Below, piece by piece: positions 27,806 through 54,226 of a DNA stretch of 64,000 nt. The stretch is taken from NCBI GenBank assembly GCA_946403545.1, contig CAMJAG010000001.1, positions 872 to 64,871 of the forward strand, written 5' to 3'. The notes under the pieces are model-generated. The model saw nothing but the letters and a program-made list of their open reading frames with translations, searched no databases and was not told the DNA's origin. The translations under genes and the position numbers were made by a program. Numbering within the stretch: the first letter of the stretch is position 1; every line of letters starts with the position of its first letter. This DNA comes from an uncultured Bacillales bacterium (GTDB lineage: Bacteria > Bacillota_I > Bacilli_A > RFN20 > CAG-826).

Positions 27806-27860
27806 ATTAATTCACCTTCATAGTTATTTTAGCATGTGTTTATTTATAAACAAAAAGAAA

Positions 27861-27895
27861 AAATACCCCCACCACTGAGGTAGGGGTATCTAAGA
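27861..27895 (-). terminator. Rho-independent terminator downstream of the flotillin gene
   Basis: ATACCCC...GGGGTAT stem followed on the minus strand by TTTTTTCTTTTT. Confidence 0.5.
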
Positions 27896-27902
27896 TAATC
27901 AA

Positions 27903-31865: not shown

Positions 31866-33113
31866 TTAGTCGTGTGGATTCGAATTAGGTTTATCAATAC
31901 CTTGAGCTTTCTTAAGCTCTGCTTTTCTTTCGTACATCAGTCTATCCGCACGAATGAATAAGTGAGTAATTGAGTTATCTTTATATTTCAAGAAATCTGC
32001 CATACCTGCAGCAATAACAGGTCCACCATTAACGACATTTTTATCAATAATATCATTGAATTTCCTTATTAAAACCTCTCTATTTGTGAAATCTTCACCT
32101 TCAAGAATTACTGCAAATTCGTCTCCACCTACTCTATAAATATCACTATATTTATAGATTCCTTTGATGATTGTAACAGCGGATTTGATATATTCATCAC
32201 CTTTATCATGGCCATAAGTATCATTTATAGTCTTAAGATCATTTAAGTCAAAAACAACTAAACTGAATTCTCTTTGATTTCCATATCCAATTCTTGCATC
32301 AAACATAGTTTCAATTTCAATATAAGCGTGCTTACTTTTAACTCCTGTTAGTGGATCAGTCATCGCTAATAATTGAGCGTATTCTAATTCTTCTCGGTGT
32401 TTTTTATCTGCTGCAATTAGTGATTCAAGTTCTCTTCTATAACTCTTCTTTCCTGCTTCAAGAACGAATGTATGTAATAGACATGTACCTGCTAGGAAGG
32501 CTAAAGAGTATAGAGGCTGCAATGGATAGAAGTATTGGAAGATAGTTAATATTGTTAAAGCGCTAGAACATAAAGCAATTGCTAAATATCTAGGTTTTCT
32601 TTCGTCTTCATGGTTTTTTATCATGAAGTAGAAAGTATATAAAGCAGTTCCTAAGAAAATAAACGCTTGAACAATAAGTGATATATTTCTGCCCATATCT
32701 GTTTGATATGCAACTGCATCATCAAAGTGGAAGAAAATAGGCACAATTAAGTTAATGACTAAAAGTATTAAATGAGCGGTCAAGAACATCCAACTGAATA
32801 TCACTAATAAATTAGTGAAATGGTTCTTCTCTTTTAGATATTCAACTATATATCTTGCCCACATAAATACAGTTAAGCCCATAGCAACAAAGTAGACATA
32901 TGTATCAATGTATAAGGCTATCTTTAAATGGTTCATGTTTAAAATGCCCCATATACCATCGGTTAAGTAATATAAAAGAGTGCTGAGTAAAAAGAGTCTG
33001 TATATATTTCTAGCAGGGATTAAATCTTTTTGCCCTGATGGTTTCATGAATACATCAATATTAACAATGATAGTTACGAAAAAAGCAATTATACCCGCCA
33101 TTGAATATGCCAT
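31866..33113 (-). CDS. Membrane-anchored diguanylate cyclase (GGDEF domain)
   Basis: About six N-terminal TM helices and a C-terminal GGDEF domain with the intact RVGGDEF active-site motif. Confidence 0.85.
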   Translation of the reverse strand: MAYSMAGIIAFFVTIIVNIDVFMKPSGQKDLIPARNIYRLFLLSTLLYYLTDGIWGILNMNHLKIALYIDTYVYFVAMGLTVFMWARYIVEYLKEKNHFTNLLVIFSWMFLTAHLILLVINLIVPIFFHFDDAVAYQTDMGRNISLIVQAFIFLGTALYTFYFMIKNHEDERKPRYLAIALCSSALTILTIFQYFYPLQPLYSLAFLAGTCLLHTFVLEAGKKSYRRELESLIAADKKHREELEYAQLLAMTDPLTGVKSKHAYIEIETMFDARIGYGNQREFSLVVFDLNDLKTINDTYGHDKGDEYIKSAVTIIKGIYKYSDIYRVGGDEFAVILEGEDFTNREVLIRKFNDIIDKNVVNGGPVIAAGMADFLKYKDNSITHLFIRADRLMYERKAELKKAQGIDKPNSNPHD

Positions 33114-33358: not shown

Positions 33359-33682
33359 TTACTTAAGTTTTGTGTATTTATCGGACTTTCCTTTAGATTT
33401 GCTTACTGGATATTTAGCCTCATTTTGATCCATCTTAGCATTTATAATTTCATCTTCATCAAGGTTTAATTTATCTAAAAGGTTTTGACAATAAGTTAAA
33501 ACATCCGCTAACTCTTCTTTGACTTCATTGATGTCAAAGTTTTCTTCATCCCATTGAAAACATTCTAATAATTCATTAGCTTCAATAGAGATAGATTTAG
33601 CTAGATTAGCAGGACTATGGAACTTGTCCCAATCTCTATCTTCTGTAAATTTTCTAATCCTATCTTTTGTTTCTTGTTTCAT
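33359..33682 (-). CDS. MazG-like nucleotide pyrophosphohydrolase (small all-alpha NTP-PPase)
   Basis: 107 aa with the EANELLE...EELADVL metal-binding EExxE/D pattern. Confidence 0.7.
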   Translation of the reverse strand: MKQETKDRIRKFTEDRDWDKFHSPANLAKSISIEANELLECFQWDEENFDINEVKEELADVLTYCQNLLDKLNLDEDEIINAKMDQNEAKYPVSKSKGKSDKYTKLK

Positions 33683-38998: not shown

Positions 38999-39829
38999 AT
39001 GAATAATGAAACAAATAAAAATGAATTAGAGAATGAGAAAGTTTATATTTTCATTTCGCATTCTCATAAAGATATAGAAAAAGTAAGAAAAATTAGAAAT
39101 TATTTAGAGAGTCTTGATTGTGAACCAATTCTTTTCTTTTTAAAAAGCAAAGATGATGAAGATGAGATAATTCAACTTATCAAAGACGAGATTGATGCTA
39201 GAGTTTGGTTTATTTATTGTAGATCTATAAATGCATCTAAATCTAAATGGGTTAATGATGAAGTAACATATGTTGAGCAAACAGGTAAAAACAACATAGT
39301 TATAGATATCGATGGATGCCTAGATGAAAATGGAGAATTAAAAAATAGCGTTAAAAATAAACTTAATGTCATTATTAACGGATTTAGAAACTTACAACAA
39401 TTGTATATTTCTTATTCACACAAAGACTCTGTTGAAGTTCTTCGTATTGTCCAGTTTTTAAAAAGATATGGTGTTGATTTGTTTTATGATGACATGACAC
39501 ATTTTGGATCAGATTGGAAACATTCTATTCATAATCAAATTGTTAAATCGCCATATTTTCTGGTTTTTTTAAGCAAACAATCCATTAATTCACATTTCAT
39601 TTATGATGAAATAAAGCTAGCACAATACTTTAATAAAGAAATAATTCCCGTAATTCTTTATAACAATATTAACGATTATTATTCAGTCATTGAATCAGAT
39701 GTTTTCCAAAAGAATTTTGCATACTTTTTAGTCTGTGAATTCGATACTTCTAGTGATGTTCAATTCAAAGTGTCCTCATTTAGACTGCTAAACACATTAT
39801 TAGAGCATTTCTTTACGGATTTTGAATAA
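38999..39829 (+). CDS. Tandem TIR-TIR domain protein
   Basis: Two TIR domains: the first carries VYIFISHSHKDIEKV, the second LYISYSHKDSVEV. 276 aa with no other domain. Confidence 0.8.
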   Translation: MNNETNKNELENEKVYIFISHSHKDIEKVRKIRNYLESLDCEPILFFLKSKDDEDEIIQLIKDEIDARVWFIYCRSINASKSKWVNDEVTYVEQTGKNNIVIDIDGCLDENGELKNSVKNKLNVIINGFRNLQQLYISYSHKDSVEVLRIVQFLKRYGVDLFYDDMTHFGSDWKHSIHNQIVKSPYFLVFLSKQSINSHFIYDEIKLAQYFNKEIIPVILYNNINDYYSVIESDVFQKNFAYFLVCEFDTSSDVQFKVSSFRLLNTLLEHFFTDFE

Positions 39830-39836
39830 AAGAAAA

Positions 39837-39868
39837 GGTGGATTCTCATGAGTCCACCATTTTTATTA
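39837..39868. terminator. Bidirectional intrinsic terminator (second copy of the 37-nt repeat)
   Basis: GGTGGATTCTCATGAGTCCACC hairpin followed by ATTTTTATTA; 35 of 37 positions match 38930-38966. Confidence 0.6.
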
Positions 39869-41101
39869 TGTTCGAGTAACTGAGAGGCTAACACTCCAAA
39901 CATAATAGAACATACTTGATGCATTCGCCGTAGGATGGTTTAGATTTAGCATAGCTTCTTCTATAAATAATGCATCTGATTTAGGTACTTTAATTGAGAA
40001 ACTATCCAAATCCGCACCATTGTTACTTTCTAAATGTATCGGGGTTTTATATTGGTTATTGAGTATAAACGACCCATTGATCCAATTACATAACAGCAAT
40101 AATTTTCTACCATAGTTATAGATATTAATCGTATATGTAATGTATTCAGTTGAAGATTCTGCGATCCATTCTTTTAAGTTAAATGGAAGTTTGTACTTCA
40201 ATGATGCATTTGAGGAATAAGTGCTATTTATGGTTGCACTGTTATCTTCAAATGTACTTGTTACACGTAGGCCTGCATAACTCTTATTAAGATTTATATA
40301 TTTATATTCTTCTAATAATGCTTCAGTTCCTAAATAAAGTTTCATTGAAATAGGACTTATTTTTGCAGGTGCAGTTGAGATACAACCTTTTGGTCTAGAA
40401 ACAGTGAATTTAATTCCTTTTAATATCTCTTCTTTATCTAATTTGTACATTCTATTGAAGACTGTGTAGTCATCATTTGAACGGAAGGTTCCACTATCAA
40501 TTAAAGATATTGCAGTATCTAACCTATAATCAACCCAATTAAATGTGTTAATTCCTACTACACCTTCTTCTTTTTCATAGTGGCTGAATTTTATAGTCAA
40601 ATAACCAACTGATTCAGTGTGTTGGAGATAGTATTGATAGTCTTCACTAAGCTTTAATTCATATGATTTTGACTTATTAGAACAAGAGATGTCTACACTA
40701 GGAAAATTGAAGTCTATAATCTGAGCTTCATTAGTGTCCAAATAGTTTGCGTAAATGTTTTCTGGAAGTTCCACATTGTCATAAATTGCTTTGCCAGAGC
40801 GATCCACTAATTTCTTTGAATTTAAGTTTGGCTTTTCGAAACAACCCATAAAGAGTTTGTCCTTCTTCTCTGTAGGTTGATATTCGAAAGTATTTATGTA
40901 TTGTATGGTATTTACTTCACCATCGTTTGCAATAACATTAACTTCCTTCCATGGAATTGGTTGTGGCTTATAATCCTCATCTAAAATCGGACAATTTGTT
41001 TCCCCTTTCATAGAAAAGGAACATGCACTGATAGATAATAACGAGACTGCTGTTATGAGTATTAAGCTAATTTTTCTTTTCATAATTGAGATCCTCCTCA
41101 A
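39866..41101 (-). CDS. Lipoprotein of unknown function
   Basis: Lipobox LLSISACS; 411 aa, beta-rich and Tyr/Asn-rich. Confidence 0.5.
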   Translation of the reverse strand: MRRISIMKRKISLILITAVSLLSISACSFSMKGETNCPILDEDYKPQPIPWKEVNVIANDGEVNTIQYINTFEYQPTEKKDKLFMGCFEKPNLNSKKLVDRSGKAIYDNVELPENIYANYLDTNEAQIIDFNFPSVDISCSNKSKSYELKLSEDYQYYLQHTESVGYLTIKFSHYEKEEGVVGINTFNWVDYRLDTAISLIDSGTFRSNDDYTVFNRMYKLDKEEILKGIKFTVSRPKGCISTAPAKISPISMKLYLGTEALLEEYKYINLNKSYAGLRVTSTFEDNSATINSTYSSNASLKYKLPFNLKEWIAESSTEYITYTINIYNYGRKLLLLCNWINGSFILNNQYKTPIHLESNNGADLDSFSIKVPKSDALFIEEAMLNLNHPTANASSMFYYVWSVSLSVTRT

Positions 41102-41124: not shown

Positions 41125-41433
41125 TTAAATACAATATCTATAGAATAAAAAGAAAGACACCCCGTCAAGGATGTCTATTGCGGATACCTCGAAGATATCA
41201 GCGAAAGTATTGACTGTATCAAGATTCACTGTTCCTTCGTTTTCAATTCTGCGTAAGTTTCTTACTGAATATCCAACGCGGTCTGCTAGCTCTTCTTGAG
41301 TCCAGTTTCTACTTTTTCTTAGGTTCTTGATGGATGTACCAATCAAGCGTGAATCAATTAATGTTCTCATAACTACTACCTCCCAAATTGATCTGCTACC
41401 TATATTGACAGGTTTTCCTGAGTTTTGATTCAC
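41125..41433 (-). CDS. XRE-family (Cro/C1-type HTH) transcriptional regulator
   Basis: HTH_3 region IKNLRKSRNWTQEELADRVGYSVRNLRRIENEG. The true start may be the internal Met at about 41370. Confidence 0.7.
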   Translation of the reverse strand: MNQNSGKPVNIGSRSIWEVVVMRTLIDSRLIGTSIKNLRKSRNWTQEELADRVGYSVRNLRRIENEGTVNLDTVNTFADIFEVSAIDILDGVSFFLFYRYCI

Positions 41434-41486
41434 TAAGTAGTTTATGAGCGTATATACTTTAAATTATCCTACGATTGTTGTCAACA

Positions 41487-41738
41487 CTAATTGTCAGAAA
41501 TTGATTCTGCAAGTTCTAATATTTGTACAAATGTTAAAGATTGAAGGTGTAGATACGCTTGAACAACAGCCAACTTATATTCAGTTCTATCTGTTGACCT
41601 AATAGCAATATCTCTAAACCTTCTAAATTCTACTCTTGTTTCTTGCTCTGTATCACTAAGGCATGTCATTACCATTTTATTAGTTGCTTCTAAAGTAAGT
41701 TGCCTCAAATATTTTTTCTTAGCCTCAACATCAACCAT
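41487..41738 (-). CDS. Small hypothetical protein between the TIR-MTase and XRE genes
   Basis: 83 aa, charged and alpha-helical, 8 nt downstream of the TIR-MTase gene. Confidence 0.35.
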   Translation of the reverse strand: MVDVEAKKKYLRQLTLEATNKMVMTCLSDTEQETRVEFRRFRDIAIRSTDRTEYKLAVVQAYLHLQSLTFVQILELAESISDN

Positions 41739-41746
41739 ATAAATAC

Positions 41747-43099
41747 CTATTTCTTAAATCCTACACAAACAAAGCGGTTAACTGCGTACCAAAAATCATT
41801 TCTAGAGAAACGATATTGGAGTTGCGTTAACAAATCTTCCATTTCATTGAACTCTGCTTTAGTTTGCTCATTTTCGTTTGCGATTAATTGAGCTTTAAAA
41901 TAATTCAATCTATAAGCAAAGCTTACTTTATAAAGACCTAATTTCTCTTCATAAGACATATGAGATGTTTCTGTAACAGTGCAATGCATTTTAACTTTGT
42001 TAAATCCTTCATGGACTAACCAAGAATAAAGTTTTCTACCATTGTTTCTATCAGACATTCCTTCAAGAGAATAAGATTTCTTTAAGACTTTTTCTATAAG
42101 CTCATCATCTCCATAAGAAATCTTACTGCCATCATCACTACCTCTAACAATAATCATTCCGCCTTTATTCATAAGAGCCTTTAAATTCTCTAATGCTTTT
42201 TCAGGATTTGTTAGATGATGGAGGACTAAGAAACAAGAAACAACATCAAAGCCTTTAATGCCCTTTTGCTTCATTATTCCCTGCATTTCCTCCATAAATG
42301 TTGGACTTTCAATATTTAATTGATAGAAAGAGAACTTACTATTTTTATTATTTTTATTTGCTTGTTCAATAGCACTTTCACTAATATCGATTCCCACTAC
42401 TTTAGTGTATTTTGCTTTTCTAAAAGCTTGTCTAGTTACATATCCTTGAGCGCAACCAACATCTAGAACTGTGTAATTGTTTTTGTCTAAATACATGTCT
42501 AAAATGCGTTGGTTTTCATCATCATATCTAGATCCTTGGCTTTTTAATCTTTCTGATTCATTAGTGAAATCAAATTCATAAATAGACCATCTTCCTTTGT
42601 AATCAATGCAATCTTTTGGTCTTGGTCTAGAAACTAAAAACCTATTAAACAATCTCTTTTGATAATCATTTACATCAAAAACATCACCAATTGGTTCACT
42701 ATGACAATCTCTAATTGCGTCAATTTCCTTTGGTAACTTTTTTGGATAATTAACTTTATCTAAGAATAAAACTAGAATATTTAATCCTTCAGTTTTTAAA
42801 GCGGTTTCTATTTCTTGTCTAACCCAGTCATCTTTTTTAAATATTCTCTTAGAAAATGTATCTGGAGTTACAAGAAGAATAAAGTCTTTGGAATTATGGA
42901 TTGCATTAGTTAACTGAGGTGGAAACATACCACCTTGAATTGATACCTTATCAAAGAAACTTAGATAACCATTATCCATCAAATTTCTATATAAAAGATA
43001 CGTTGGATATAATCCATCACTTCTTCTATATGAAATGAAAACATCATATATAAAATCTTTTCTCTTAATTTGAGTGTTTTTATTAATTTCTTCAGGCAT
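41747..43099 (-). CDS. TIR domain fused to a class I SAM-dependent methyltransferase
   Basis: N-terminal TIR (FIYDVFISYRRSDG ... ILLVTPD) and a C-terminal Rossmann MTase (motif I VLDVGCAQGYVT, motif IV-like DVVSCFLVLHHL). Confidence 0.8.
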   Translation of the reverse strand: MPEEINKNTQIKRKDFIYDVFISYRRSDGLYPTYLLYRNLMDNGYLSFFDKVSIQGGMFPPQLTNAIHNSKDFILLVTPDTFSKRIFKKDDWVRQEIETALKTEGLNILVLFLDKVNYPKKLPKEIDAIRDCHSEPIGDVFDVNDYQKRLFNRFLVSRPRPKDCIDYKGRWSIYEFDFTNESERLKSQGSRYDDENQRILDMYLDKNNYTVLDVGCAQGYVTRQAFRKAKYTKVVGIDISESAIEQANKNNKNSKFSFYQLNIESPTFMEEMQGIMKQKGIKGFDVVSCFLVLHHLTNPEKALENLKALMNKGGMIIVRGSDDGSKISYGDDELIEKVLKKSYSLEGMSDRNNGRKLYSWLVHEGFNKVKMHCTVTETSHMSYEEKLGLYKVSFAYRLNYFKAQLIANENEQTKAEFNEMEDLLTQLQYRFSRNDFWYAVNRFVCVGFKK

Positions 43100-43198
43100 A
43101 TTCAGTCCTCTTATTTATTAATTTTATAATAAAATAAAGAAAAATACTTTAATATGATAATATAAGAGTGAAGTATATTTACGTGAGGTATTAAACAT

Positions 43199-45580
43199 AT
43201 GTATCCTGAATTACTTGCTATTTTCATTATTACTGGAGTTGTTGAACTCGTTTTAATAGGTGTATTTTTTTATAACCTAATCAGATATAGATATCTTGGT
43301 AATAAATATTTTTACGTAACTGTAAGTGTATTAGTTCTTTTGATGTATTCAACATTCGTCAATAGATCATCAGATCTTTCTATTTCTATGTTTGGAAACA
43401 TAGTGTTTGACACTATTGCGGCAGCAGTAGGTAAAGTTGATACTGAAAAGATTTCTTGGCTGTTTTTACCGGGCGAATGGAATAAATGGCTAGTAATTTT
43501 CTACTTTATCGCCTCATATACAACATTCGCATTCTTATCCATCACAGTTATTCTTAACTTTGCAAAACTCTTCTTAAATGCATTTATTTTCTATAAAAGA
43601 CGAATTATAAATGGAGCAAATGTGTACTATTTGTTCACAGATTCTAGAAATGAAACAGTAATTCCTTTAGCCACTAAACTATTAGATGAAACAAAAGGTC
43701 GTAAAAACTCAGTTAAAGTTTTCGTTTCTAGAGCATCTTTAAAAACTCAAGAAGGTAATGAATTTAGAGATATGTTAGTGGGCTTAGGCATTCCTGTTCA
43801 AGCTGAAAAATTCTCATACAGGATGGCTAGAAAGATCTTTAATTCTAGATACTTCAAACTACATCTTTTTGATAAGCAACAATCGTTTATTTACTTACTT
43901 TTCTCAAATGACGAAACCACTACAAAAGTGGCAACTGATTTCAAAACAGCGATTCAAAAGAATCGTAAGTTTAAAAAAATTAACGACTTTGTAACTCTTT
44001 TAAAGGAAACAAAAGACAAAGATAAATTAGAGAAATTAAAAGAGAACTTTAATGAGAAAGAATATGATTTATTACAAAAAATCCAAATCTTTGTCACTTA
44101 TCAAGAAACAGATTTAGATATTCTCCATAACTTCTCTGGAGAGACATTGCATATCATGAATACTCTTTCTAAGTACGACATGATTGCTTCTAGATTTGTA
44201 TTTGATAATCCAATCTCTCAATTAGTGGACTTAAACAACATCAAACTTAAAGAAGACAATAAACATTTAAATGTTACACTCCTTGGTTTTGGTGTTATTG
44301 ATAGAGCAATATTTGAAAGAATGACATTCTCTTATCAACTTTATGGAGATAATATTAACAAAGTTAATTACCATGTTTTAGATAGAGATGCTGATTCTTT
44401 AATTAAACCTTATGTAAACGAATATACAGATAGAAATAACAGTGTTTATCTATACTCTATCGACTCCGCTTTCGATGGAGAAGATTTAAGACACTACGAA
44501 ACAATTGATAGATATATCTCATCATTGCAAAACGATCCAAACCGTTTCCAAGATGATGGTTTTGAAATCTTTGTTATTTCAGTCATAAACTCAAATAACG
44601 ATTTAAATATCGCGCTTAACTTAAGAAGAGCTATCTTAAAATACTTCAATGATAGATGTGAACAAGTTGTTATTTACGTCAGAGTTGCAGAAAGACTCAT
44701 TGGAGAACAATTCAGAGGTTCAAATCTTTCATACACATACGAAACTCTCTCTCATATTCACGAAGTAAAAGACTTCAATAAGAAATCTGATGTAGAGAAA
44801 GAAGCATACTTCAACTCATTCAAGGACGAGGAAGAAAGAAAAGCAGCAGAGAAAAGATTAATTAAAGATTTAAAAGCACCTATCATTCTCTTTGGTAATG
44901 ATGCAATTATGTCCACATATCTTGCTAGAGAACATAAATACTTCATGGGATTCGCTGAAAACGCTTGGAAATCCTACCAATTAGAACAAGCTTATAACAA
45001 TTATTCTGAAACTCAACTTGATAGATTATGGTTAAGACAAAATAAACAAGAAGTTAAAAATAACACTGATTATGTTCTTTCACTTAGAACAAAGCTAAAC
45101 TTATTTGGCTACAAACTAAATCTAAATAAACAAGAAAACCAATACTTAATGGTTCCTGGTGATGATGTTTCAATTCTTACTTCAGGTGAAAATGAAGAAA
45201 CATTCCTTGAAAGAACAAAACTTAAAGATGAAACTGGTGATGTTGCAAAAGTTCTTAAGATTGCTGATATGGAACATAACCGCTGGTTACAATCCAATAA
45301 CCAAAGATTTAGATATTTATCTAAAGATTACACAAAGGTCGAGGATCAAGAACTATTTGGAGTGAATAAATACACCAATGAAAAAGAAATCACAAGGAAA
45401 TATAACGACAATACACAACACATTTGTATGGTCACTAATGAGGGATTAAGAGACTTCTACAATTATGTTGGAAAGAAAAATCCTGAATATAAAGATGTCG
45501 CTTTAAAACTTGTGTACACAAACGATATTGTTCAGTTAAGAACGATAATCAAAAATGGAACAGAACAAAAGAATAAATAA
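43199..45580 (+). CDS. Membrane protein with four N-terminal TM helices and a ~650-aa cytoplasmic domain of unknown function
   Basis: 793 aa with a hydrophobic N-terminus and no recognisable motif in the soluble part. It is followed by a terminator. Confidence 0.55.
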   Translation: MYPELLAIFIITGVVELVLIGVFFYNLIRYRYLGNKYFYVTVSVLVLLMYSTFVNRSSDLSISMFGNIVFDTIAAAVGKVDTEKISWLFLPGEWNKWLVIFYFIASYTTFAFLSITVILNFAKLFLNAFIFYKRRIINGANVYYLFTDSRNETVIPLATKLLDETKGRKNSVKVFVSRASLKTQEGNEFRDMLVGLGIPVQAEKFSYRMARKIFNSRYFKLHLFDKQQSFIYLLFSNDETTTKVATDFKTAIQKNRKFKKINDFVTLLKETKDKDKLEKLKENFNEKEYDLLQKIQIFVTYQETDLDILHNFSGETLHIMNTLSKYDMIASRFVFDNPISQLVDLNNIKLKEDNKHLNVTLLGFGVIDRAIFERMTFSYQLYGDNINKVNYHVLDRDADSLIKPYVNEYTDRNNSVYLYSIDSAFDGEDLRHYETIDRYISSLQNDPNRFQDDGFEIFVISVINSNNDLNIALNLRRAILKYFNDRCEQVVIYVRVAERLIGEQFRGSNLSYTYETLSHIHEVKDFNKKSDVEKEAYFNSFKDEEERKAAEKRLIKDLKAPIILFGNDAIMSTYLAREHKYFMGFAENAWKSYQLEQAYNNYSETQLDRLWLRQNKQEVKNNTDYVLSLRTKLNLFGYKLNLNKQENQYLMVPGDDVSILTSGENEETFLERTKLKDETGDVAKVLKIADMEHNRWLQSNNQRFRYLSKDYTKVEDQELFGVNKYTNEKEITRKYNDNTQHICMVTNEGLRDFYNYVGKKNPEYKDVALKLVYTNDIVQLRTIIKNGTEQKNK

Positions 45581-45694: not shown

Positions 45695-46618
45695 ATGATT
45701 ACAGAAATTCATAAGAATTATTCTGCTTTTCGAGAAATGTTGTTAGCCACAACTGCTTTAAGCAACCGTTCTAGTAAGAAATATGATGACGATTGCAAAG
45801 CAATCATTGATTTCATCGGAGAAGCATATGGTCTAGAAAAAGACCTCGTAGAATATTGTAAAAAGGTCATTTTAGATGAACTAGTTACAATATCTACTGA
45901 CCAAGATATCCGCGCTTTCGTAAATTCACATACCGCTGACAGTGAATTAGAAGAATTAGACTCTTTATTAAGCGCTAAATGTGATGTTATTGGAGTTATT
46001 AGAAACTTTGGAGAAGTTAGAAGTCCTCAATTAAGTGAGACTTGGTTTGACTATAGTCATAGCAATCCATATTATCCAGAAATTAGATATCAACAATTAT
46101 CTATCGCTGCTTCCACAGGTAATGTAGTAGCAAATAAGATCGTTGGTATTCTTTCTGTTTTAGGTATTGGATGCGAAGCTACTAGAGAAAAGGTTCTTTC
46201 TGGAGTTTATAGACTTAGACAATGCGCTATTTGGGGAGACATTTCTTCTCTAATTATGATTAGACAAGTTTATAGAATCTTAGAAATGAAAGAACAAGTA
46301 AAACTCTATGATGAATTAGTGTCATTAGTACCTTTCATGAAAGAAGGAAGAACAGTAATTCCTCAAAGAATTGCAGAGAAAATCTCTAGAGAAGCAATAG
46401 AAACATTCGCAATTATCTGTTCTATTAAACAAGACATTATCTTAAATCAACATAAGTTCTACATAGATTATTCATTCGTTGAAGTTATGTTACTTAAAGA
46501 AGTTGATTACTATGATAAACTCCACTTCATTAATAAATATGACGCTCAAGAGTGGAAAGAAGTTACTAACTCATCATTTAATCCAAATAAGAAGATTGGA
46601 TTTAAGATTGGAGAATAG
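45695..46618 (+). CDS. Hypothetical protein, first gene of the ATPase-ClpR/ClpP operon
   Basis: 307 aa, alpha-helical, with no recognisable domain. The C-terminus ends in ...KKIGFKIGE (an IGF tripeptide). It sits 3 nt upstream of the ATPase gene. Confidence 0.5.
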   Translation: MITEIHKNYSAFREMLLATTALSNRSSKKYDDDCKAIIDFIGEAYGLEKDLVEYCKKVILDELVTISTDQDIRAFVNSHTADSELEELDSLLSAKCDVIGVIRNFGEVRSPQLSETWFDYSHSNPYYPEIRYQQLSIAASTGNVVANKIVGILSVLGIGCEATREKVLSGVYRLRQCAIWGDISSLIMIRQVYRILEMKEQVKLYDELVSLVPFMKEGRTVIPQRIAEKISREAIETFAIICSIKQDIILNQHKFYIDYSFVEVMLLKEVDYYDKLHFINKYDAQEWKEVTNSSFNPNKKIGFKIGE

Positions 46619-46621
46619 ATT

Positions 46622-48586
46622 ATGAAAAGAAGACCATATTCTGAACAAGTATCTCAAAAATACATTGATCAAAATCTTGAAAACACTCAAATAATGTCCT
46701 TCCTTGAATATAAAGGTAAAGGCTACGCTAAATACTTATTTGATGATTTAGCAAAAACTGATATCAAAGGATTCCCATTCTCTAGTGATTTTGTATCTTC
46801 TAAAGGGAAATCATATTCCTTTATTGATTTTGAAAATCTAAGTGATAAAGAAAAAGCGGATTGTAAACTTAGATTCTTCTATTTACCTAATTATCATGAG
46901 TTATATATCGGTACTACTGGTTCTGGTAAAACTACAGGATGTATTGAACCACAAATCAGAGCGATATCCACTCAAAAGAATAAAGCTAACTTATTTATTA
47001 CTGACCCTAAAGGTGAGTTATTTGAACATAATGGTAAATACTTAAAAGACCAAGGTTATAACGTATTTGTTCTTAACTTTAGAAACTTAGGTAGAACTCA
47101 TACATGGAATCCACTTAAAGAAATGTATGAAAAACAAATGGAATCTCTCACTATTGGAAAGAATAGTAAGAAATGTAATTGTCCAGTAGATAAGTCACTA
47201 GCGTTAATGTCTGAAAAGAGTAAATATCAAGGCACATATATTGCTTATAAACACATGGCATTTGCAACACAAGAAGACTTTGATAAATACGTGAATATTG
47301 AAACTTATTTAAATAAATCCAAAGTTTCTTCATTAGTTAACCAATTATGTGACTGTATCTTTAGTGAAGATAAATCCACTACAGATAGAACTTGGAGTGA
47401 TGGTGCTAGAGGATTATTCCATGGTATTTTATTGTCCATGTTAGAAGAAGCTGTTTTACCAGGAAGTAAGTTTAGCGAACAACATATGACATTAAAGACA
47501 GTTAACGATATCTTCAATTTAATTAGAGAAGGTAGCGAAACTCGCGATTCATATGGAGATCACTACACTAACGAAGAAATGCATGAGAAGATGGTAGACT
47601 TCTTGCATGGTAAATCATCTATTTGTATGAGCAAGTTAAATAATATTATTAAGACTGCTCAAACAACGAGAAAAGGGTTTTTATCAACATTCTTATCCAC
47701 TACTGAAAAATGGATGCAAGGTCACATCTATCAATTGACAAGTCATACATCTATTTCTCTAGAAGATAATGAACATCCTTGGGCGGTATTTGTATCCACT
47801 AGAGACTATGATAAATCAGATAATGTTATCGCTGGTTTATTCATTGACTGGGTATATAGACAATCTCTACAAGCTGTTGAAGAGAAACGTAAACTCGGTT
47901 TAGAACCTAGACCAATTCACTTCTTATTAGATGAATTCGCTAACATTCCAAGAATCCCTGACTTTGATAATAAGATTGCTACTGCTAGAAGTAGAAATAT
48001 GTGGTTCCACTTATTCGTTCAATCTTATGATCAATTAGATTTAATCTATGGAGAAGAAACAGCCTCTATTATCGTAGATAACTGTAACCAACAAACATTC
48101 TTAGGTTCTCAATCTCAAGAAACTAAAGAAAGATTCTCTAGAGAATGTGGTAAAAAGACTGTTACATCCTTAGAAGGTGTTATTCATGGTGAAGTTAACG
48201 ATGTTGTAGAAATCCCAGTTGTGCCTATCACAAGTCTAGATCAAATCAAACCTGGTGAAATGTACACTAAACGTATTTATTCTCCAATATTAAGATGTAG
48301 CTTTATCAGAAGCTATCAATGCGCTCAACAAGGTATCTTTAAAAACTTCTGGAATAATAAAGCGGAAGAAGAACTTATTCCACTTAACTATGTTATTCCT
48401 GATGATTTAGAACATTCTTATTTACCAGTATTAAGCGCTATTGAAGTAAGAAGATTATGTCCACCTAGACCAAGAAATCCTCGTAGTAGAGTTCAATACG
48501 AAGATGAAGACATGGAAGCAGAAGATCCTGAAGACTTTGAAGACTTCTTACATGAAGTTCAACTTAAGATGAAAGGAAAGAAGTAG
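46622..48586 (+). CDS. Soluble VirD4/TraG/TraD-type (type IV coupling protein-like, FtsK-HerA superfamily) P-loop ATPase
   Basis: Walker A IGTTGSGKTT, the T4CP DPKGE motif (ITDPKGELF), Walker B HFLLDEFANIP, and QSYDQLDLIYGEE. There is no N-terminal TM anchor, and the C-terminal tail is acidic. Confidence 0.8.
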   Translation: MKRRPYSEQVSQKYIDQNLENTQIMSFLEYKGKGYAKYLFDDLAKTDIKGFPFSSDFVSSKGKSYSFIDFENLSDKEKADCKLRFFYLPNYHELYIGTTGSGKTTGCIEPQIRAISTQKNKANLFITDPKGELFEHNGKYLKDQGYNVFVLNFRNLGRTHTWNPLKEMYEKQMESLTIGKNSKKCNCPVDKSLALMSEKSKYQGTYIAYKHMAFATQEDFDKYVNIETYLNKSKVSSLVNQLCDCIFSEDKSTTDRTWSDGARGLFHGILLSMLEEAVLPGSKFSEQHMTLKTVNDIFNLIREGSETRDSYGDHYTNEEMHEKMVDFLHGKSSICMSKLNNIIKTAQTTRKGFLSTFLSTTEKWMQGHIYQLTSHTSISLEDNEHPWAVFVSTRDYDKSDNVIAGLFIDWVYRQSLQAVEEKRKLGLEPRPIHFLLDEFANIPRIPDFDNKIATARSRNMWFHLFVQSYDQLDLIYGEETASIIVDNCNQQTFLGSQSQETKERFSRECGKKTVTSLEGVIHGEVNDVVEIPVVPITSLDQIKPGEMYTKRIYSPILRCSFIRSYQCAQQGIFKNFWNNKAEEELIPLNYVIPDDLEHSYLPVLSAIEVRRLCPPRPRNPRSRVQYEDEDMEAEDPEDFEDFLHEVQLKMKGKK

Positions 48587-48587
48587 T

Positions 48588-49133
48588 ATGGCTAACGATA
48601 ATTTTGAAGAATTATATAAACAAGGAATTATAGTCATCACTACTGGTATAGAAGATATGGATGTTACTAGTAACATCATCTTATCTCTTCTTAATTGGAA
48701 CAGAATTGATCCAAAGAAAGAATTACAACTCTATATCTCTTCAGTATCTGGAGACTACCTAAATGTCCTTTCTATTTATGACGCTATCCAATCAATTAGT
48801 AATCCAATTTCAGGATATTGTATTGGTTTAGTTGGTAGTTGCGCTGCACTACTTTTAGCGGCGTGTAACAAAGGTAAACGCTACATTTTAGAGCATAGTC
48901 AAATTGCTTTAAGAGAGATTTCTGGCATTATTCCTGGTGGAAGTAAACAACAAACAGAAATCGAAATTCTCGCAAACGAATTAGCGTCTCAAAGAGAAAC
49001 ATTTGAATCTCTTCTTTCAAAACATACAGGTCAATCCGTTGAAGAAATACACCACCTTTGCTATGAAAACACTTATTTAACTCCTGAAGAAGCTATTAAA
49101 AAAGGCTTCGTAGATAAGATTGTGAGGAAATAA
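48588..49133 (+). CDS. ClpP-fold protein lacking the catalytic His and Asp (ClpR-like inactive paralog), N-terminally short
   Basis: It aligns to ClpP (YISSVSGDYLNVLSIYDAIQSI...GLVGSCAAL). The Ser position is kept, but His (IHQP becomes LREI) and Asp (ERD becomes YEN) are replaced. It lacks the N-terminal axial-loop segment. Confidence 0.7.
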   Translation: MANDNFEELYKQGIIVITTGIEDMDVTSNIILSLLNWNRIDPKKELQLYISSVSGDYLNVLSIYDAIQSISNPISGYCIGLVGSCAALLLAACNKGKRYILEHSQIALREISGIIPGGSKQQTEIEILANELASQRETFESLLSKHTGQSVEEIHHLCYENTYLTPEEAIKKGFVDKIVRK

Positions 49134-49135
49134 TT

Positions 49136-49648
49136 ATGGATAACAGAATTATTACTTTAAATGGTGAAATCAACGAAGGAAGCGCGATGAAAGTTATTCT
49201 TTCATTACTTCAAATGGATGCTGAAAATAGAAAACAACCAATATATCTATATATCAACTCTCCTGGTGGAAATATTGTTCATGGATTAGCAATATATGAT
49301 GTTATGAATAACATATCCGCTCCGGTATATACAGTATGTAATGGCATGGCAGCATCGATGGGTAGTTTCTTACTCTCTTGTGGTGCTAAAGGACATAGAT
49401 ATTGTTTAAAACACTCTCGTATTCTTATCCATCAACCACTTGTCTATAACAACTATGGAAGAATGATTGAAGAAAGCGAAGCTCAACAAATCGCCGCTAA
49501 TTTAAGAAAAGATAGAGATAAATTAGAACAAATCATGGCAGACAATTCTGGTAAAGACATTAAAGTCTTCCATAAGGATTGTGAAAGAGACCATTGGATG
49601 AGCGCTCAAGAAGCTCTAGACTATGGTCTAATAGATAAGATTATCTAA
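49136..49648 (+). CDS. clpP: ClpP-family serine peptidase with an intact Ser-His-Asp triad but missing the N-terminal axial loops
   Basis: GMAASMGS (Ser), ILIHQP (His) and CERDHWMSAQEALDYGLIDKI (Asp) are present. It is 170 aa, against ~195-200 for canonical ClpP. Confidence 0.8.
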   Translation: MDNRIITLNGEINEGSAMKVILSLLQMDAENRKQPIYLYINSPGGNIVHGLAIYDVMNNISAPVYTVCNGMAASMGSFLLSCGAKGHRYCLKHSRILIHQPLVYNNYGRMIEESEAQQIAANLRKDRDKLEQIMADNSGKDIKVFHKDCERDHWMSAQEALDYGLIDKII

Positions 49649-50437: not shown

Positions 50438-53284
50438 TTATCCCTTCAAATCTCTAATAAATTTCTCAACATGTTTAATCCATGTTAATACTGATTCATT
50501 TTGTAAGTATTCGTATTTTCTTGTTACTTTTTGTGCTTCGCAAATCAAATTATATAAAGCTTGTGCTTCAGTTAATTCGATTGGAATATTTAGTTTTTCC
50601 GCAATTTCAATTGCTTCAGAACAAGGAGCTTCCGCTTTTGCAAGTAAGGAAGTATCTCCATTATAGTTTACTAAATAGTAAAGAGAAGTTAAGAAATAGA
50701 TTTGACCTTGGTCATATAAATCTTTATTCTCTTTAGCACATTTCATTGCTTCTTCTTTTAATTCCATGATCCTTGCTTCATTGCCACGATTAACAATTTC
50801 ATAGAACATAGATGTATATAAGAATCTTGTGTAATATCTATCATGTTGGTTATATAAGACATAGATTGCTTCCGCTTTATTAAGTTTATCTTTAGCTTTA
50901 GCTAAATCCATATGCCATATACATGCATCAGCGTATACACGATAGTCTTCCGCTAAGAAGAGGTGATCTCCAATTTGAGTGCCATCTTCCATTTCTTCTT
51001 TAACTCTTTTATCAAGAAGCGCGACAGCATTATCTGCTGCTTTATAGCAGTTTTCTAAATCAAGCCTTCTACAATAAACTTTTGATAAAGTTAAGTTAAT
51101 CAAAGATTCTTCGTATAAATCGCCTGCTTCTTTAGCGTCTTTGATCGCACCATCACTCATTCCTATGAGTTCGTCGAATAGCACCATCTTGCGATAAACA
51201 AGCATTGCCATTCTTTCAAATTCACTACGAATTTCTATGTCTAATTCGCCTAAATCATGTTCTTTGATGAATTCTTTAATGTCATTAAATGCTTCAGTAA
51301 ATGATAAGGAAATATAGTGGAATTGAATAACTCCCATATCATAGTTCACATCATCACTTGGATCTCTATTCTTTAAGAACTTACCAAATCCTGCTTCTTT
51401 AAGTTTGATAAATAAGCCAGCGTTATAGATTGCTTGTCTATATTTGATAAAGATTTTTGTAAAACATTCAGACTGATAGATTTCAAACGCTTCATAATCA
51501 TCATCCTTATAGATGTAATTGATGTTATCAATGTATTCAAATAATCCTTCATAAAGAGTGTAAAGTTTTGATTTAATACACACTCTTAAAAAGTCAAAAT
51601 TCTTTAATAGTTTACAAAGTTTTTCTGTCTTTTTAAGTGCTTTTAAGGCTTTTTGATAGTCTAAGATGACATAAGGATTGTTCTTCCATTCACCTAATTC
51701 AATTTGCTTTTCAATATATTCAAGCAAGATCTTATAACCATCTCTTCTAGAGACACAATATTTTGCAGGACATTCGTTAGATTCACTTAACCAGTCTAAA
51801 ATTGATTTATGTCTACTCTTAAGAGTGCCATCTTCAATAATTACAAAGTAATTAGATACTATATCGATATTCTTTCTAATTTCAGATTCTGATAGACCTG
51901 TTGCATCCGCTAAAAACTCCACTGTTGGAGGAACGCTTGTAGCGAGTAATAAAGATATAATCTTTCTAATATCTTCATAATCATCTGGTGCTTTAGGGAA
52001 AATTCTATCAAACCAGATTAAGTAGTATGAATAAATTCCGTCAGGGAATTCTCTAACGTTATCTAAAGAGTATTCACCACTCTTAATTAGACTAACAATA
52101 CTCTTAGCATATAAGAATGATCCATGTGTTTTTCCAAGCAAAATCCTCAGTGTTTCTGCATCGAATTTATAATTTGAGAGTGCTTGGTCATAATACTTTT
52201 TAATATCCGCAACGTTTTCTTCATTGTTTTCTAACATGCTGAAAACGTGACAACTTGAGAAGTAACTAACAACATTCTTTTGAGGTCTAGTTGAACATAA
52301 AATCTTTAACCAAGAAGGTAAAGTGTTTTGATAAGTCACTATCATCTCAGCAATTTCATTTTTATTATCCAAAACTGCTTCATCTAATGCATCGATAACA
52401 ATTATTTGAGGGTTCTTAAAAGTAACTTTGTTACCTACTTCAATAAAGAACAACTCAAATAATCTTTTAGCGTCTAAATTATCTATATTTGCTTCTCTAG
52501 TTAAAATCTTTTTAATTTCGAGATTATAATCTTCGTTACGACCAGCGATTTGTGCTGCTAAGTTTTTAATAATACTTCTAGCGTCAGTCTTAGTTCTATT
52601 ACCAAAGCTACAGAAATGGATACCTGCAACATTGTTATGGAAATTAATAGTTAACATAGCGCACATTGCAGTCTTTCCAATACCTGGAGCAGCTTGTAAT
52701 AAATAGATTGGTAAACTATCTGGTTTATTAATCCATTTTTCTACATCCGCGAAGAAAGAATCTCTACCAACAAAGTTGAGTGTATGATGAGTAATTTCAA
52801 AAGCGTCAATAGCTTGGACTTCTTTAGAAATATCAAAACCAGTATCGAAGTAGCCTACTTCTTCTTCGTTTCTAACGATCTTTAGTAATCTTTGATAGCA
52901 ACTTTCGTATACATCTTCAATGATTGAATTATCCGCTGCGACAGCGTTTTTAATCATGATTCTTTGTAAACGAACAATTGAAAGAGGAACATAAGAGTCA
53001 TCTAACATGATAGGAACAATTGTTTTCTTATATTCCACTGCTCTAGCGAGTTCATTTAAACAATATCCGTCTAGAGAAACAGACTTTTTAGATACAAAGA
53101 AAACAAAATGACTACATCTTTGAATCGCGTTATCAATTTTAGTTTCCCAATCACCTTGATATAGATAGTCCTTATCAAGGAAGACTTCATAAACTTCTTC
53201 TTTGCGTAAATCAGTAACAACTTTATTGACTACGTTTTCTAAAGTTTGATGTCCATAGGATATGAAAATAACTTGTTTATCCAT
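50438..53284 (-). CDS. TIR-NACHT-TPR protein (bacterial STAND/NLR-like NTPase with a TIR effector domain)
   Basis: N-terminal TIR (VIFISYGHQ...FVFFVSKKS), a NACHT Walker A LLQAAPGIGKTAMCA and Walker B IIVIDALDEAV, and C-terminal TPR-like helical repeats; 948 aa. Confidence 0.85.
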   Translation of the reverse strand: MDKQVIFISYGHQTLENVVNKVVTDLRKEEVYEVFLDKDYLYQGDWETKIDNAIQRCSHFVFFVSKKSVSLDGYCLNELARAVEYKKTIVPIMLDDSYVPLSIVRLQRIMIKNAVAADNSIIEDVYESCYQRLLKIVRNEEEVGYFDTGFDISKEVQAIDAFEITHHTLNFVGRDSFFADVEKWINKPDSLPIYLLQAAPGIGKTAMCAMLTINFHNNVAGIHFCSFGNRTKTDARSIIKNLAAQIAGRNEDYNLEIKKILTREANIDNLDAKRLFELFFIEVGNKVTFKNPQIIVIDALDEAVLDNKNEIAEMIVTYQNTLPSWLKILCSTRPQKNVVSYFSSCHVFSMLENNEENVADIKKYYDQALSNYKFDAETLRILLGKTHGSFLYAKSIVSLIKSGEYSLDNVREFPDGIYSYYLIWFDRIFPKAPDDYEDIRKIISLLLATSVPPTVEFLADATGLSESEIRKNIDIVSNYFVIIEDGTLKSRHKSILDWLSESNECPAKYCVSRRDGYKILLEYIEKQIELGEWKNNPYVILDYQKALKALKKTEKLCKLLKNFDFLRVCIKSKLYTLYEGLFEYIDNINYIYKDDDYEAFEIYQSECFTKIFIKYRQAIYNAGLFIKLKEAGFGKFLKNRDPSDDVNYDMGVIQFHYISLSFTEAFNDIKEFIKEHDLGELDIEIRSEFERMAMLVYRKMVLFDELIGMSDGAIKDAKEAGDLYEESLINLTLSKVYCRRLDLENCYKAADNAVALLDKRVKEEMEDGTQIGDHLFLAEDYRVYADACIWHMDLAKAKDKLNKAEAIYVLYNQHDRYYTRFLYTSMFYEIVNRGNEARIMELKEEAMKCAKENKDLYDQGQIYFLTSLYYLVNYNGDTSLLAKAEAPCSEAIEIAEKLNIPIELTEAQALYNLICEAQKVTRKYEYLQNESVLTWIKHVEKFIRDLKG

Positions 53285-53966
53285 GTACTTTTTCCTCTAA
53301 AGCAATGTTATAACCCGCTTTCTTGCCTTCATTTAATGTTTCTTCATTTGCTAAATGCATAAGAGTAATTTTCTTTCTCTCTTCCATATTGAAGGCGTTA
53401 TTTAATACTGAAATATGAGTATGTATCATCGCATTAAGAGAAGTTGTAACTTCATGATACATTTCATCTATTTTTCCTGATTTAAGTTCTCTAACTGCTC
53501 TATCAAGTAGTTCAGATGTATCTCCTGAATAGTAGAAATTAATTTCTTTAGAATATACAAAATATGCATAACTACCAGGAATATGTGGAACTTCAACAGG
53601 TTCCACTTTTAAATCTTTGATTAAAGAGTAGTCATTATATATTTCAAAATCAAAATCTAAACCAGTTAATTGGAGTAGTTTTTTAAGATTATCTTTTAAA
53701 GGATAGAAGACTTTTACCGTCTTTTTTGAGAAGAAATGAATCCAATATAAGAATGGTTCAAGGCTTCCAATATGATCACTATGAAGATGGGTAATTAAAA
53801 CAACAATTTCATCAACATCATCTAAAAGATGAAGTGCTAAAATCTTGTCACAAATTTTCTCGCCCATATCAAAAATATACAATTTGCCATTTTGTTTAAA
53901 ATAAGCACAATTGTTATTTGTGAAATAGTTAAAAGCGGCTCCTACACCTAAAAATTTTAAATACAT
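53277..53966 (-). CDS. Metallo-beta-lactamase-fold hydrolase
   Basis: HxHxDH motif (ITHLHSDHIGS); 229 aa. It overlaps the TIR-NACHT start by 8 nt. Confidence 0.7.
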   Translation of the reverse strand: MYLKFLGVGAAFNYFTNNNCAYFKQNGKLYIFDMGEKICDKILALHLLDDVDEIVVLITHLHSDHIGSLEPFLYWIHFFSKKTVKVFYPLKDNLKKLLQLTGLDFDFEIYNDYSLIKDLKVEPVEVPHIPGSYAYFVYSKEINFYYSGDTSELLDRAVRELKSGKIDEMYHEVTTSLNAMIHTHISVLNNAFNMEERKKITLMHLANEETLNEGKKAGYNIALEEKVHG

Positions 53967-53968
53967 AA

Positions 53969-54226
53969 TTATTTAATTATCTTATAGCCTTCTTTAAGAA
54001 TACATTTAATCGTAGCAAGAGCGGTATTCCTATCATATTCTTTTTCTTCTTCAGGAAGTTCATCATAAGGCACTAAACAAGGAGTTTGTTTTTTAGTGTC
54101 ATTTCTTTCTGGACCATAGGTCCATCCATCTTTGATTCTTCCTTCCATCCAAGTTATATGGACTTGTTCCGCTATTATTTCGATAAGTTGTTTTATATCT
54201 TCAGTGATAACAATATCTTTTTCCAT
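53969..54226 (-). CDS. RyR-domain (ryanodine-receptor-like) small protein
   Basis: 85 aa matching the bacterial RyR-domain pattern: HITWMEGRIKDGWTYGP...TPCLVPYDELPEEEKEYDRNTA. Confidence 0.55.
   Translation of the reverse strand: MEKDIVITEDIKQLIEIIAEQVHITWMEGRIKDGWTYGPERNDTKKQTPCLVPYDELPEEEKEYDRNTALATIKCILKEGYKIIK

Follow-up and report, generated by a model that had tools for sequence, protein, structure and literature searches.

A TIR-methyltransferase fusion in an uncultured Bacillales bacterium, a candidate ligand-gated conflict protein

TIR effector systems and the fusion gene

TIR NADases, which cleave nicotinamide adenine dinucleotide (NAD+), are executioners common to bacterial, plant and animal immunity, and their interest lies in the activator that releases them. 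In SpbK of ICEBs1, in TIR-STAND/Avs-like proteins and in the TIR effectors of Pycsar and CBASS, the TIR NADase is a suicide effector held under a separate sensing module; the consulted parts of PMC11984713 and PMC12847820 describe the effectors of such systems as swapping among TIR, transmembrane and nuclease domains, and as lying in variable or mobile regions. In SARM1, an ARM domain with NAD+ or nicotinamide mononucleotide as ligand exerts the control, and assembly runs through sterile alpha motif domains. Here, we analyse a 64,000-nucleotide stretch of DNA (the window; GC content about 32%) from an uncultured Bacillales bacterium (assembly GCA_946403545.1, contig CAMJAG010000001.1) and, within it, a gene (41747..43099, minus strand) whose 450-amino-acid (aa) product joins a SARM1-like TIR domain to an S-adenosylmethionine (SAM)-dependent methyltransferase (MTase). 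Hence, a TIR of the SARM1 kind is coupled in this protein (TIR-MTase) to an enzyme fold that is not known as an immune sensor.

The bacterial TIR-MTase resembles the suicide systems in pairing a TIR domain with a second module, but this C-terminal MTase is its only partner: it has neither the regulatory and assembly domains of SARM1 nor the STAND NTPase, cyclase, SAVED, CARF or SLOG receptor of other TIR abortive-infection systems, and it shows no sequence relationship to SpbK in PADLOC. Its TIR domain weakly matches ThsB models of Thoeris (Pfam ThsB_TIR, 23.3 bits; PADLOC, E = 1.9e-5; NCBIfam ThcB4, E = 8e-10, far below cut-off); however, ThsB stands alone, whereas the TIR here is fused to an enzyme. 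Partner genes were sought by Pfam and PADLOC scans of the window neighbours at 36-64 kb, and among these we found no ThsA-type gene (SIR2, SLOG, Macro, transmembrane or caspase-like) and no CBASS/Pycsar CD-NTase or cyclase, the one CBASS-related signal being that a SAVED-TIR model matched weakly at the level of the TIR. Membership of Thoeris and of CBASS or Pycsar was rejected because these defining partners are absent, in agreement with an earlier reading of the sequence alone (the original prediction), which had placed the fusion outside Thoeris and CBASS.

A parallel in design is offered by one-component regulators and CARF-HEPN proteins, in which a Rossmann-type ligand-binding input likewise serves interchangeable outputs (HEPN domains fused to Rossmann-fold sensors are described in the consulted part of PMC3710099). 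The present architecture differs in that no feature of an active methyltransferase has been lost from the input and in that the output (HEPN or TIR) is N-terminal. No precedent was found for an MTase fold as the controlling module. Apart from the Pfam architecture, no model of a TIR-MTase or HEPN-MTase sensor-effector family was found in PADLOC or NCBIfam, and no published description was found in a search that most subscription journals fell outside of; literature queries on Thoeris type III, HEPN-MTase fusions and SAM-depletion sensing returned nothing specific. The new part would be an unprecedented input module mounted on a known type of TIR-effector suicide switch.

The gene forms a single open reading frame (ORF), uninterrupted along its 450 codons, and a Shine-Dalgarno sequence (AAGAGGA) can be read 8 nucleotides 5' of its ATG. 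Both motifs from which the fusion had been predicted, DVFISYRRSDG and VLDVGCAQGYVT, are found in the one protein, and both domains are recognized by Pfam. A search of 5.8 billion proteins returned 253 matches to TIR-MTase homologues, and more than 100 of those listed are full-length (430-474 aa) and keep both domains at identities down to 28%; the fusion therefore recurs in other genomes, as the original prediction had proposed to check. The nearest relatives in genome collections are from Clostridia metagenome-assembled genomes (MAGs), at about 40% identity (best 41%). An AlphaFold2 model of the whole chain was obtained with a predicted local distance difference test score (pLDDT) of 87.6 and a predicted template modelling score (pTM) of 0.79. 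A frameshift or two-ORF artefact was ruled out by the intact frame, the listed full-length homologues and the confident whole-chain model. At three MAG loci (L008 5989..7280, L011 5458..6870 and L006 6103..7281; L numbers denote loci of relatives and P numbers their proteins) the frame is split or 5'-truncated, with TIR and MTase as abutting ORFs, which could reflect gene decay or assembly error.

The TIR domain spans aa ~18-137 (42689..43048, minus strand) and belongs, as judged from sequence comparison, to the SARM1-like TIR group. Pfam TIR_2 matches aa 20-126 with E = 1.2e-9 (39.1 bits, cut-off 28) and Pfam TIR reaches 22.7 bits (cut-off 21.3), both in support of the predicted N-terminal TIR. 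When the N-terminal 160 aa alone were compared with all PDB sequences, only the TIR domains of SARM1 and Caenorhabditis elegans TIR-1 were recovered (E = 3e-12), and the family profile reached E = 5e-24, which makes SARM1/TIR-1 the closest solved relative. The model shows alternating beta-alpha units from E18-23 to E133-137. Common to both proteins are the DVFISYRR strand and a DW(V)xxE(I) motif that carries the catalytic glutamate: DVFISYRRSDG aligns with DVFISYRRNSG of SARM1, and DWVRQEIETAL with DWVHKEIVTAL. E96 (codon 42812..42814, minus strand) thereby falls on the SARM1 catalytic glutamate, which we take to be E642, and the equivalent residue is kept in 59 of the 66 TIR-class family representatives described below. 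Since this glutamate is retained, the domain is predicted to cleave NAD+.

A constant methyltransferase with exchanged N-terminal domains

The MTase module (aa 170-450, including an N-terminal cap helix and a C-terminal lid; 41750..42592, minus strand) is assigned by its sequence and modelled fold to class I enzymes of the small-molecule type, without a characterised close relative. Five Pfam families (Methyltransf_31/12/23/11/25) match aa ~197-345 above their cut-offs (E = 2e-22 to 2e-14), while none of the NCBIfam equivalogs comes near cut-off. The closest solved relative is 3mgg, an uncharacterised methyltransferase of Methanosarcina mazei (sequence E = 3e-18; Foldseek E = 1e-16, TM-score 0.76; 22% identity), followed by LahSb, BC2162, the phosphoethanolamine N-methyltransferases (PMT), juvenile-hormone acid methyltransferase (JHAMT), RebM, BioC and TmtA, all of them small-molecule or peptide methyltransferases that bear a helical lid. 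The Foldseek comparison places the module with the small-molecule type and not with DNA or RNA methyltransferases, and the proposal that the MTase acts on a nucleic acid finds support neither in these fold neighbours nor in the motifs: the motif IV region reads FLVLHHL, (D/N)PP(Y/F) is absent from it, and no target-recognition domain is present.

The SAM-binding motifs are intact (VLDVGCAQG with D213, G215 and G219; D238 and D285 conserved). In addition, the family carries invariant residues of its own, namely Y174, E181, R184 and Q188 on the cap helix, HHL at 294-296, RGSDDG at 319-324, SDRxNGRK at 349-356, F394, R397 and FWY at 436-438. Whereas the class I Rossmann core and the helical lid are shared with 3mgg, LahSb, JHAMT, PMT, BioC and RebM, these enzymes leave RGSDDG, SDRxNGRK, FWY and the cap-helix Y/E/R/Q unexplained.

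The MTase module alone was searched with phmmer against 1.84 billion cluster representatives, which gave 3123 matches at E <= 1e-3, 437 at E <= 1e-10 and 104 at E <= 1e-30, and the N-terminal region was classified in the best 150 representatives. A TIR domain precedes the MTase in 66 (by the family TIR hidden Markov model, HMM) and a TIR-like or DUF4062-like domain in about 6 more (weak Pfam matches or assignment by eye); 21 carry a HEPN-like helical domain of about 160 aa (by an HMM built from its alignment), 13 one or two transmembrane helices (sequence inspection) and a single one an OmpR-type winged helix (Trans_reg_C, E = 1.5e-10). Two regions were left without assignment and the remaining 41 proteins are solo MTases or fragments (N-terminal extension <60 aa). 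At least four TIR subtypes (FISYRR, which is SARM1-like, FISFKN, FISRTGKD and VFVSYSH) are joined to the same MTase, and the more than 100 clusters of the family come from gut Clostridia, Bacillales, Bacteroidales, Akkermansia and others. The MTase is the constant part of this family and the N-terminal domains are exchanged. The pocket, which is charged, stays the same whether the protein is a solo MTase or bears a TIR, HEPN-like, transmembrane or other N-terminus, with Y174, E181, R184, Q188, D213, G215, G219, D238, D285, H295, R319, D322, D323, R351 and R355 conserved across every architecture.

The helical domain is found in Paenibacillus, Evansella, Neobacillus and one Bacteroidales MAG. 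An R-N-x3-H motif (R117-N118-x3-H122) is invariant in this domain, which is modelled as all-alpha (pLDDT 85.7); HEPN_RiboL-PSP, HEPN_Apea and Swt1 match it only below cut-off (E = 1.5e-3 to 0.04), and Abi_2 is sub-threshold too. As a profile search of PDB sequences returned nothing and Foldseek nothing significant, we call it HEPN-like only tentatively. In three proteins of about 355 aa that carry this domain (P0182, P0184 and P0187), the MTase is replaced by another C-terminal domain, Cys-rich and about 190 aa long, in which we see by eye a likeness to V4R-type small-molecule-binding domains; this suggests that ligand-binding inputs other than the MTase are also combined with HEPN-like outputs. 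Bacillales members with the HEPN-like-MTase fusion are L010 5374..7500, L012 5425..7513 and P0159-P0181; in Evansella and Neobacillus the fusion gene is followed by a conserved protein of about 210 aa that starts ...VWYASYGSNM..., is 52% identical between the two genera and has no Pfam match.

Some family members adjoin genes for phosphoesterases. A Y_phosphatase3 gene overlaps the 3' end of TIR-MTase P0006 by 17 nucleotides (L068 9286..10074; also L069-L071), and a Metallophos gene overlaps by 4 nucleotides the solo MTase P0102 (L081 6876..7466; also L082), which is itself preceded by a zinc-ribbon membrane protein. As these genes overlap the 3' ends of family members, they hint that the MTase ligand may be phosphorylated. 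Two family members have an ADP-ribosylglycohydrolase gene (PF03747) in their vicinity, at 1.7 kb and 4.5 kb (L081 8567..9499 and L089 10821..11308); this may be coincidence, since the two genes are not orthologous to each other (E = 0.036).

Candidate functions of the fusion

We reason that the TIR-MTase is a two-module conflict protein in one polypeptide, an abortive-infection or defence-type switch gated by the ligand of the MTase pocket, and we rate the chances of this reading as about even. Abortive-infection systems classically use TIR, HEPN and transmembrane domains as interchangeable effectors, and one-component regulators a winged helix as output, so that the simplest role for the MTase is that of the input. 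In such a switch the MTase module would bind or turn over SAM together with a conserved small ligand, and the N-terminal domain would be the output, controlled by the ligand state of the pocket. A change in that state would free the TIR to assemble, and the ensuing NAD+ depletion would lead to cell arrest or death. Speculative candidates for the trigger include the loss of SAM (e.g., through phage SAM lyases), a methyl acceptor that arises on infection, and auto-methylation; the attack behind it would come from a phage or a mobile element.

The ligand-gate reading is favoured by the modular N-termini, by the independent joins of several TIR subtypes and by the identical pocket in every class. 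Of the three mechanisms offered for the fusion at the outset, the best fit is an MTase-based sensor with TIR as its effector, given that HEPN-like, transmembrane and winged-helix domains are found on the same MTase as well. The evidence for a role in conflict is circumstantial. It consists of the three TIR genes in the surrounding island (described below), the defence-like neighbours of two family members (two DUF262/HEC-06-like genes in L001; a C5-MTase and PDC-M33A, E = 1e-150, in L002), a Fic/Bro-N gene that precedes the TIR-MTase P0071 in three different flanks, so that the pair appears to move between them, and the fast divergence of the gene (64% identity between the window protein and its relative P0002, vs 84% for the neighbouring 307-aa gene).

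Several observations weigh against this interpretation. The pocket looks fully catalytic, beyond what a pure sensor needs, and considering the solo and phosphoesterase-coupled forms (Metallophos, Y_phosphatase3) the MTase might be an ordinary enzyme of some pathway. In motif III the window protein has N262 in place of the Asp that most members carry. Defence genes form the context only anecdotally, in about 3 of 12 distinct neighbourhoods, and several homologues sit amid housekeeping genes. We also count here that no family relatives were found in viral contigs, although this is neutral with regard to defence.

A bolder generalization, which we hold to be rather unlikely, is that the MTase fold represents a new family of metabolite-gated immune sensors. 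As a 'guard of the methyl-donor pool', it would watch SAM (e.g., its destruction by phage SAM lyases) or an infection-specific small molecule, and would activate whichever effector is fused to it, be it a TIR NADase, a HEPN RNase, a membrane-disrupting helix or a DNA-binding domain. No description of immunity of this kind was found in the literature. If the MTase pocket is indeed the trigger, then the TIR-MTase would be a compact one-gene system that links metabolite state (SAM or a methyl acceptor) to NAD+ depletion, and a new sensor class for defence-finder catalogues.

Among the alternatives, the one that survives best, though we consider it unlikely, is that the two domains are coupled enzymes. 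The TIR would cleave or cyclise NAD+ and the MTase would methylate the product (nicotinamide, ADP-ribose or a cyclic ADP-ribose isomer), yielding either a methylated signal or an irreversible loss of NAD+ through the blocking of salvage or of phage NAD reconstitution; in the former case, a methylated NAD-derived signal would be revealed. TIR is by far the commonest MTase partner (about 72 of the 109 representatives with an N-terminal extension), the fold is that of a small-molecule MTase, the pocket, rich in invariant Arg and Asp, suits an anionic, nucleotide-like ligand, and both the overlapping phosphoesterase genes (Y_phosphatase3 in L068-L071, Metallophos in L081-L082) and the two ADP-ribosylglycohydrolase loci would be in keeping with such chemistry. 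Nevertheless, the same pocket is present in HEPN-like, transmembrane, winged-helix and solo forms, none of which makes NAD-derived products, and a substrate specific to the TIR product is therefore unlikely; the proposal that the MTase modifies a TIR-derived signal is weakened likewise, and the ADP-ribosylglycohydrolase neighbours, being non-orthologous, may have come by chance.

We give less credence still to a toxin-antitoxin or addiction module, in which the TIR-MTase would be the toxin, a translationally coupled 83-aa protein its antitoxin and an XRE-family regulator the autoregulator, the whole stabilising a variable island. The genes concerned lie as predicted. That for the 83-aa orphan protein (41487..41738, minus strand) starts 8 nucleotides past the TIR-MTase stop, and the next in line (ORF 41125..41433, minus strand) encodes a helix-turn-helix (HTH) protein (HTH_3, E = 4.8e-11). 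Because of the short distance, and because no promoter-like site separates the two co-oriented genes, the 83-aa gene is probably co-transcribed with the TIR-MTase. Public collections annotate it as a gene (a 90% cluster with 23 members), but its product has no match in Pfam, PHROGs, PADLOC, NCBIfam or PDB sequences, and the 5.8-billion-protein search returned only its own cluster. The XRE protein, which weakly matches the PADLOC capH, control-protein and mad1 models, likely starts at the ATG at 41370, behind a GGGAGG Shine-Dalgarno sequence, and would then have 81 aa (41125..41370). A promoter-like site (TTGACA-17-TAAAGT, 41456..41484, minus strand; a 10/12 consensus match only) lies between it and the 83-aa ORF, and a terminator-like hairpin (41155..41176, minus strand; a 9-bp stem followed by a T-run) marks its 3' end. 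Given its own promoter-like site, Shine-Dalgarno sequence and hairpin, the XRE gene is, by these sequence signals, a transcription unit apart from the TIR-MTase and the 83-aa ORF.

The comparison with relatives likewise divides the set. In the loci of the 64% identical P0002 (L072-L074), which share with the window the coupling-protein gene, the 307-aa gene and an S41 peptidase, the TIR-MTase stop lies in a 4-nucleotide overlap with the gene for an 81-aa homologue of the 83-aa protein (37% identity); the XRE, lipoprotein and TIR-TIR genes are all absent there, and no other homologue of the 83-aa protein was found. Conversely, P0007 (60%; L089) is directly followed by an XRE orthologue with 73% identity, behind a hairpin and promoter-like sequence of its own, with no small ORF beside it. 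P0006 (60%) has, after its overlapping Y_phosphatase3 gene, an unrelated HTH protein, and P0003, P0011, P0021 and P0111 have no conserved partner gene. Thus, the small ORF recurs only in the closest relative, the two genes occur together in no relative examined and most relatives lack both. The 'three-gene unit' of the original prediction stands in so far as each partner recurs singly, but the separate promoter-like site of the XRE gene and the lack of a relative with both leave it, on present comparisons, as a clade-specific, loosely associated set and not a conserved operon.

For the addiction module speak the position of the small ORF (downstream here, overlapping in L072-L074), its conservation despite fast evolution, the XRE gene adjoining the TIR-MTase in two relatives and the type IV coupling-protein-like gene in the same island. 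However, it would fit only this clade, as a small partner is missing altogether from most family members and the slot is elsewhere empty or filled by unrelated genes (Y_phosphatase3, HTH proteins); moreover, the 83-aa protein matches no known antitoxin family, and the antitoxin would come after its toxin and be without a DNA-binding domain. Under the ligand-gated reading, the 83-aa protein would be a clade-specific accessory, possibly an inhibitor, and the XRE protein a recurrent local regulator that is transcribed separately.

We find equally improbable an RNA-directed pair that serves RNA processing or repair instead of immunity, in which the TIR would strip nicotinamide from NAD-capped RNA, the HEPN of the paralogue would cut RNA and the MTase would methylate it. 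TIR proteins are able to decap NAD-RNA and HEPN domains are mostly RNases (in the consulted portions of PMC10937652 and PMC3710099, respectively), and the best PHROGs match of the TIR-MTase is labelled tRNA methyltransferase (E = 8e-17), with weak NCBIfam matches to CmoB, CmoM and Hen1. These MTase matches, however, are limited to the generic Rossmann core and fall far below family cut-offs, whereas the closest folds, lid included, are small-molecule or peptide methyltransferases; furthermore, the protein has no RNA-binding domain, the transmembrane and winged-helix variants do not fit, and the distribution is patchy across varied contexts.

Hardly credible, and largely refuted, is a role of the MTase in DNA modification within a restriction-modification-like or MADS-like system, to which TIR would have been added as effector: PADLOC does match mad2, the DNA N6-methyltransferase of the eight-gene MADS (aa 191-320, E = 1.9e-16), besides the weak mad1 match of the XRE protein, but the mad2 match is confined to the SAM-binding core (profile positions 274-396 of 492), FLVLHHL replaces the DPPY-type motif, a target-recognition domain is missing, DNA methyltransferases are not among the structural neighbours, and neither mad3-mad8 nor a nuclease was found among the scanned neighbours, for which reasons MADS membership and a DNA N6-MTase identity were rejected.

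Neighbouring genes and the surrounding island

Upstream, the TIR-MTase is separated from a divergent gene by 99 bp of AT-rich intergenic sequence (43100..43198), which holds the TIR-MTase Shine-Dalgarno sequence, is common to both genes and yielded no consensus promoter in a promoter scan. The divergent gene encodes a multi-pass membrane protein of 793 aa (43199..45580, plus strand) with no Pfam family match. In L072-L074 a homologue of 885 aa (29-34% identity) lies directly upstream of the TIR-MTase, co-directional and with a 2-nucleotide gap (L072 5341..7998); the membrane protein is possibly associated with the TIR-MTase. A RyR-like assignment of its C-terminus was dropped, as the match to the 'LAE.EHNRW' motif was only marginal (E = 0.096).

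Beyond it, a block on the plus strand (45695..49648) that recurs in L072 comprises the 307-aa protein (a weak Tis1-immunity match, E = 5e-4; 84% identical in L072), the type IV coupling-protein-like ATPase (T4SS-DNA_transf, E = 2e-37) and two ClpP paralogues; the block may belong to an integrative conjugative element or form an ATPase-protease system of its own. Farther along lies the gene for a TIR-STAND protein of 948 aa (50438..53284, minus strand; TIR_2, E = 2e-15, and an NPHP3_N P-loop NTPase, E = 6e-22), the third TIR gene within one 15-kb stretch. The gene upstream of it, with an 8-nucleotide overlap, has a metallo-beta-lactamase fold (53277..53966, minus strand; anti-Pycsar Apyc1, 46 bits, under the cut-off of 50) and is in turn preceded by a small RyR-domain ORF (53978..54190, minus strand) that is 62% identical to its L072 counterpart.

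On the other side, downstream of the XRE gene, a lipoprotein gene (39866..41101) is followed by one for a tandem TIR-TIR protein of 276 aa (38999..39829, plus strand; TIR_2, E = 2e-26), 2 kb from the TIR-MTase. This protein matches several PADLOC ThsB models (E = 1e-14 to 1e-9) and, weakly, spbK; no ThsA-like partner was seen for it. As it is absent from the syntenic locus L073, its gene looks like inserted cargo. Both the TIR-TIR and the TIR-STAND genes lie within 12 kb of the TIR-MTase, and the region as a whole looks like a variable, conflict-gene-rich island. Genes for a MazG-like protein, a GGDEF cyclase, a PLD-family protein and a flotillin/SPFH protein are also found nearby (33359..33682, 31866..33113 and 26213..29411, all on the minus strand).

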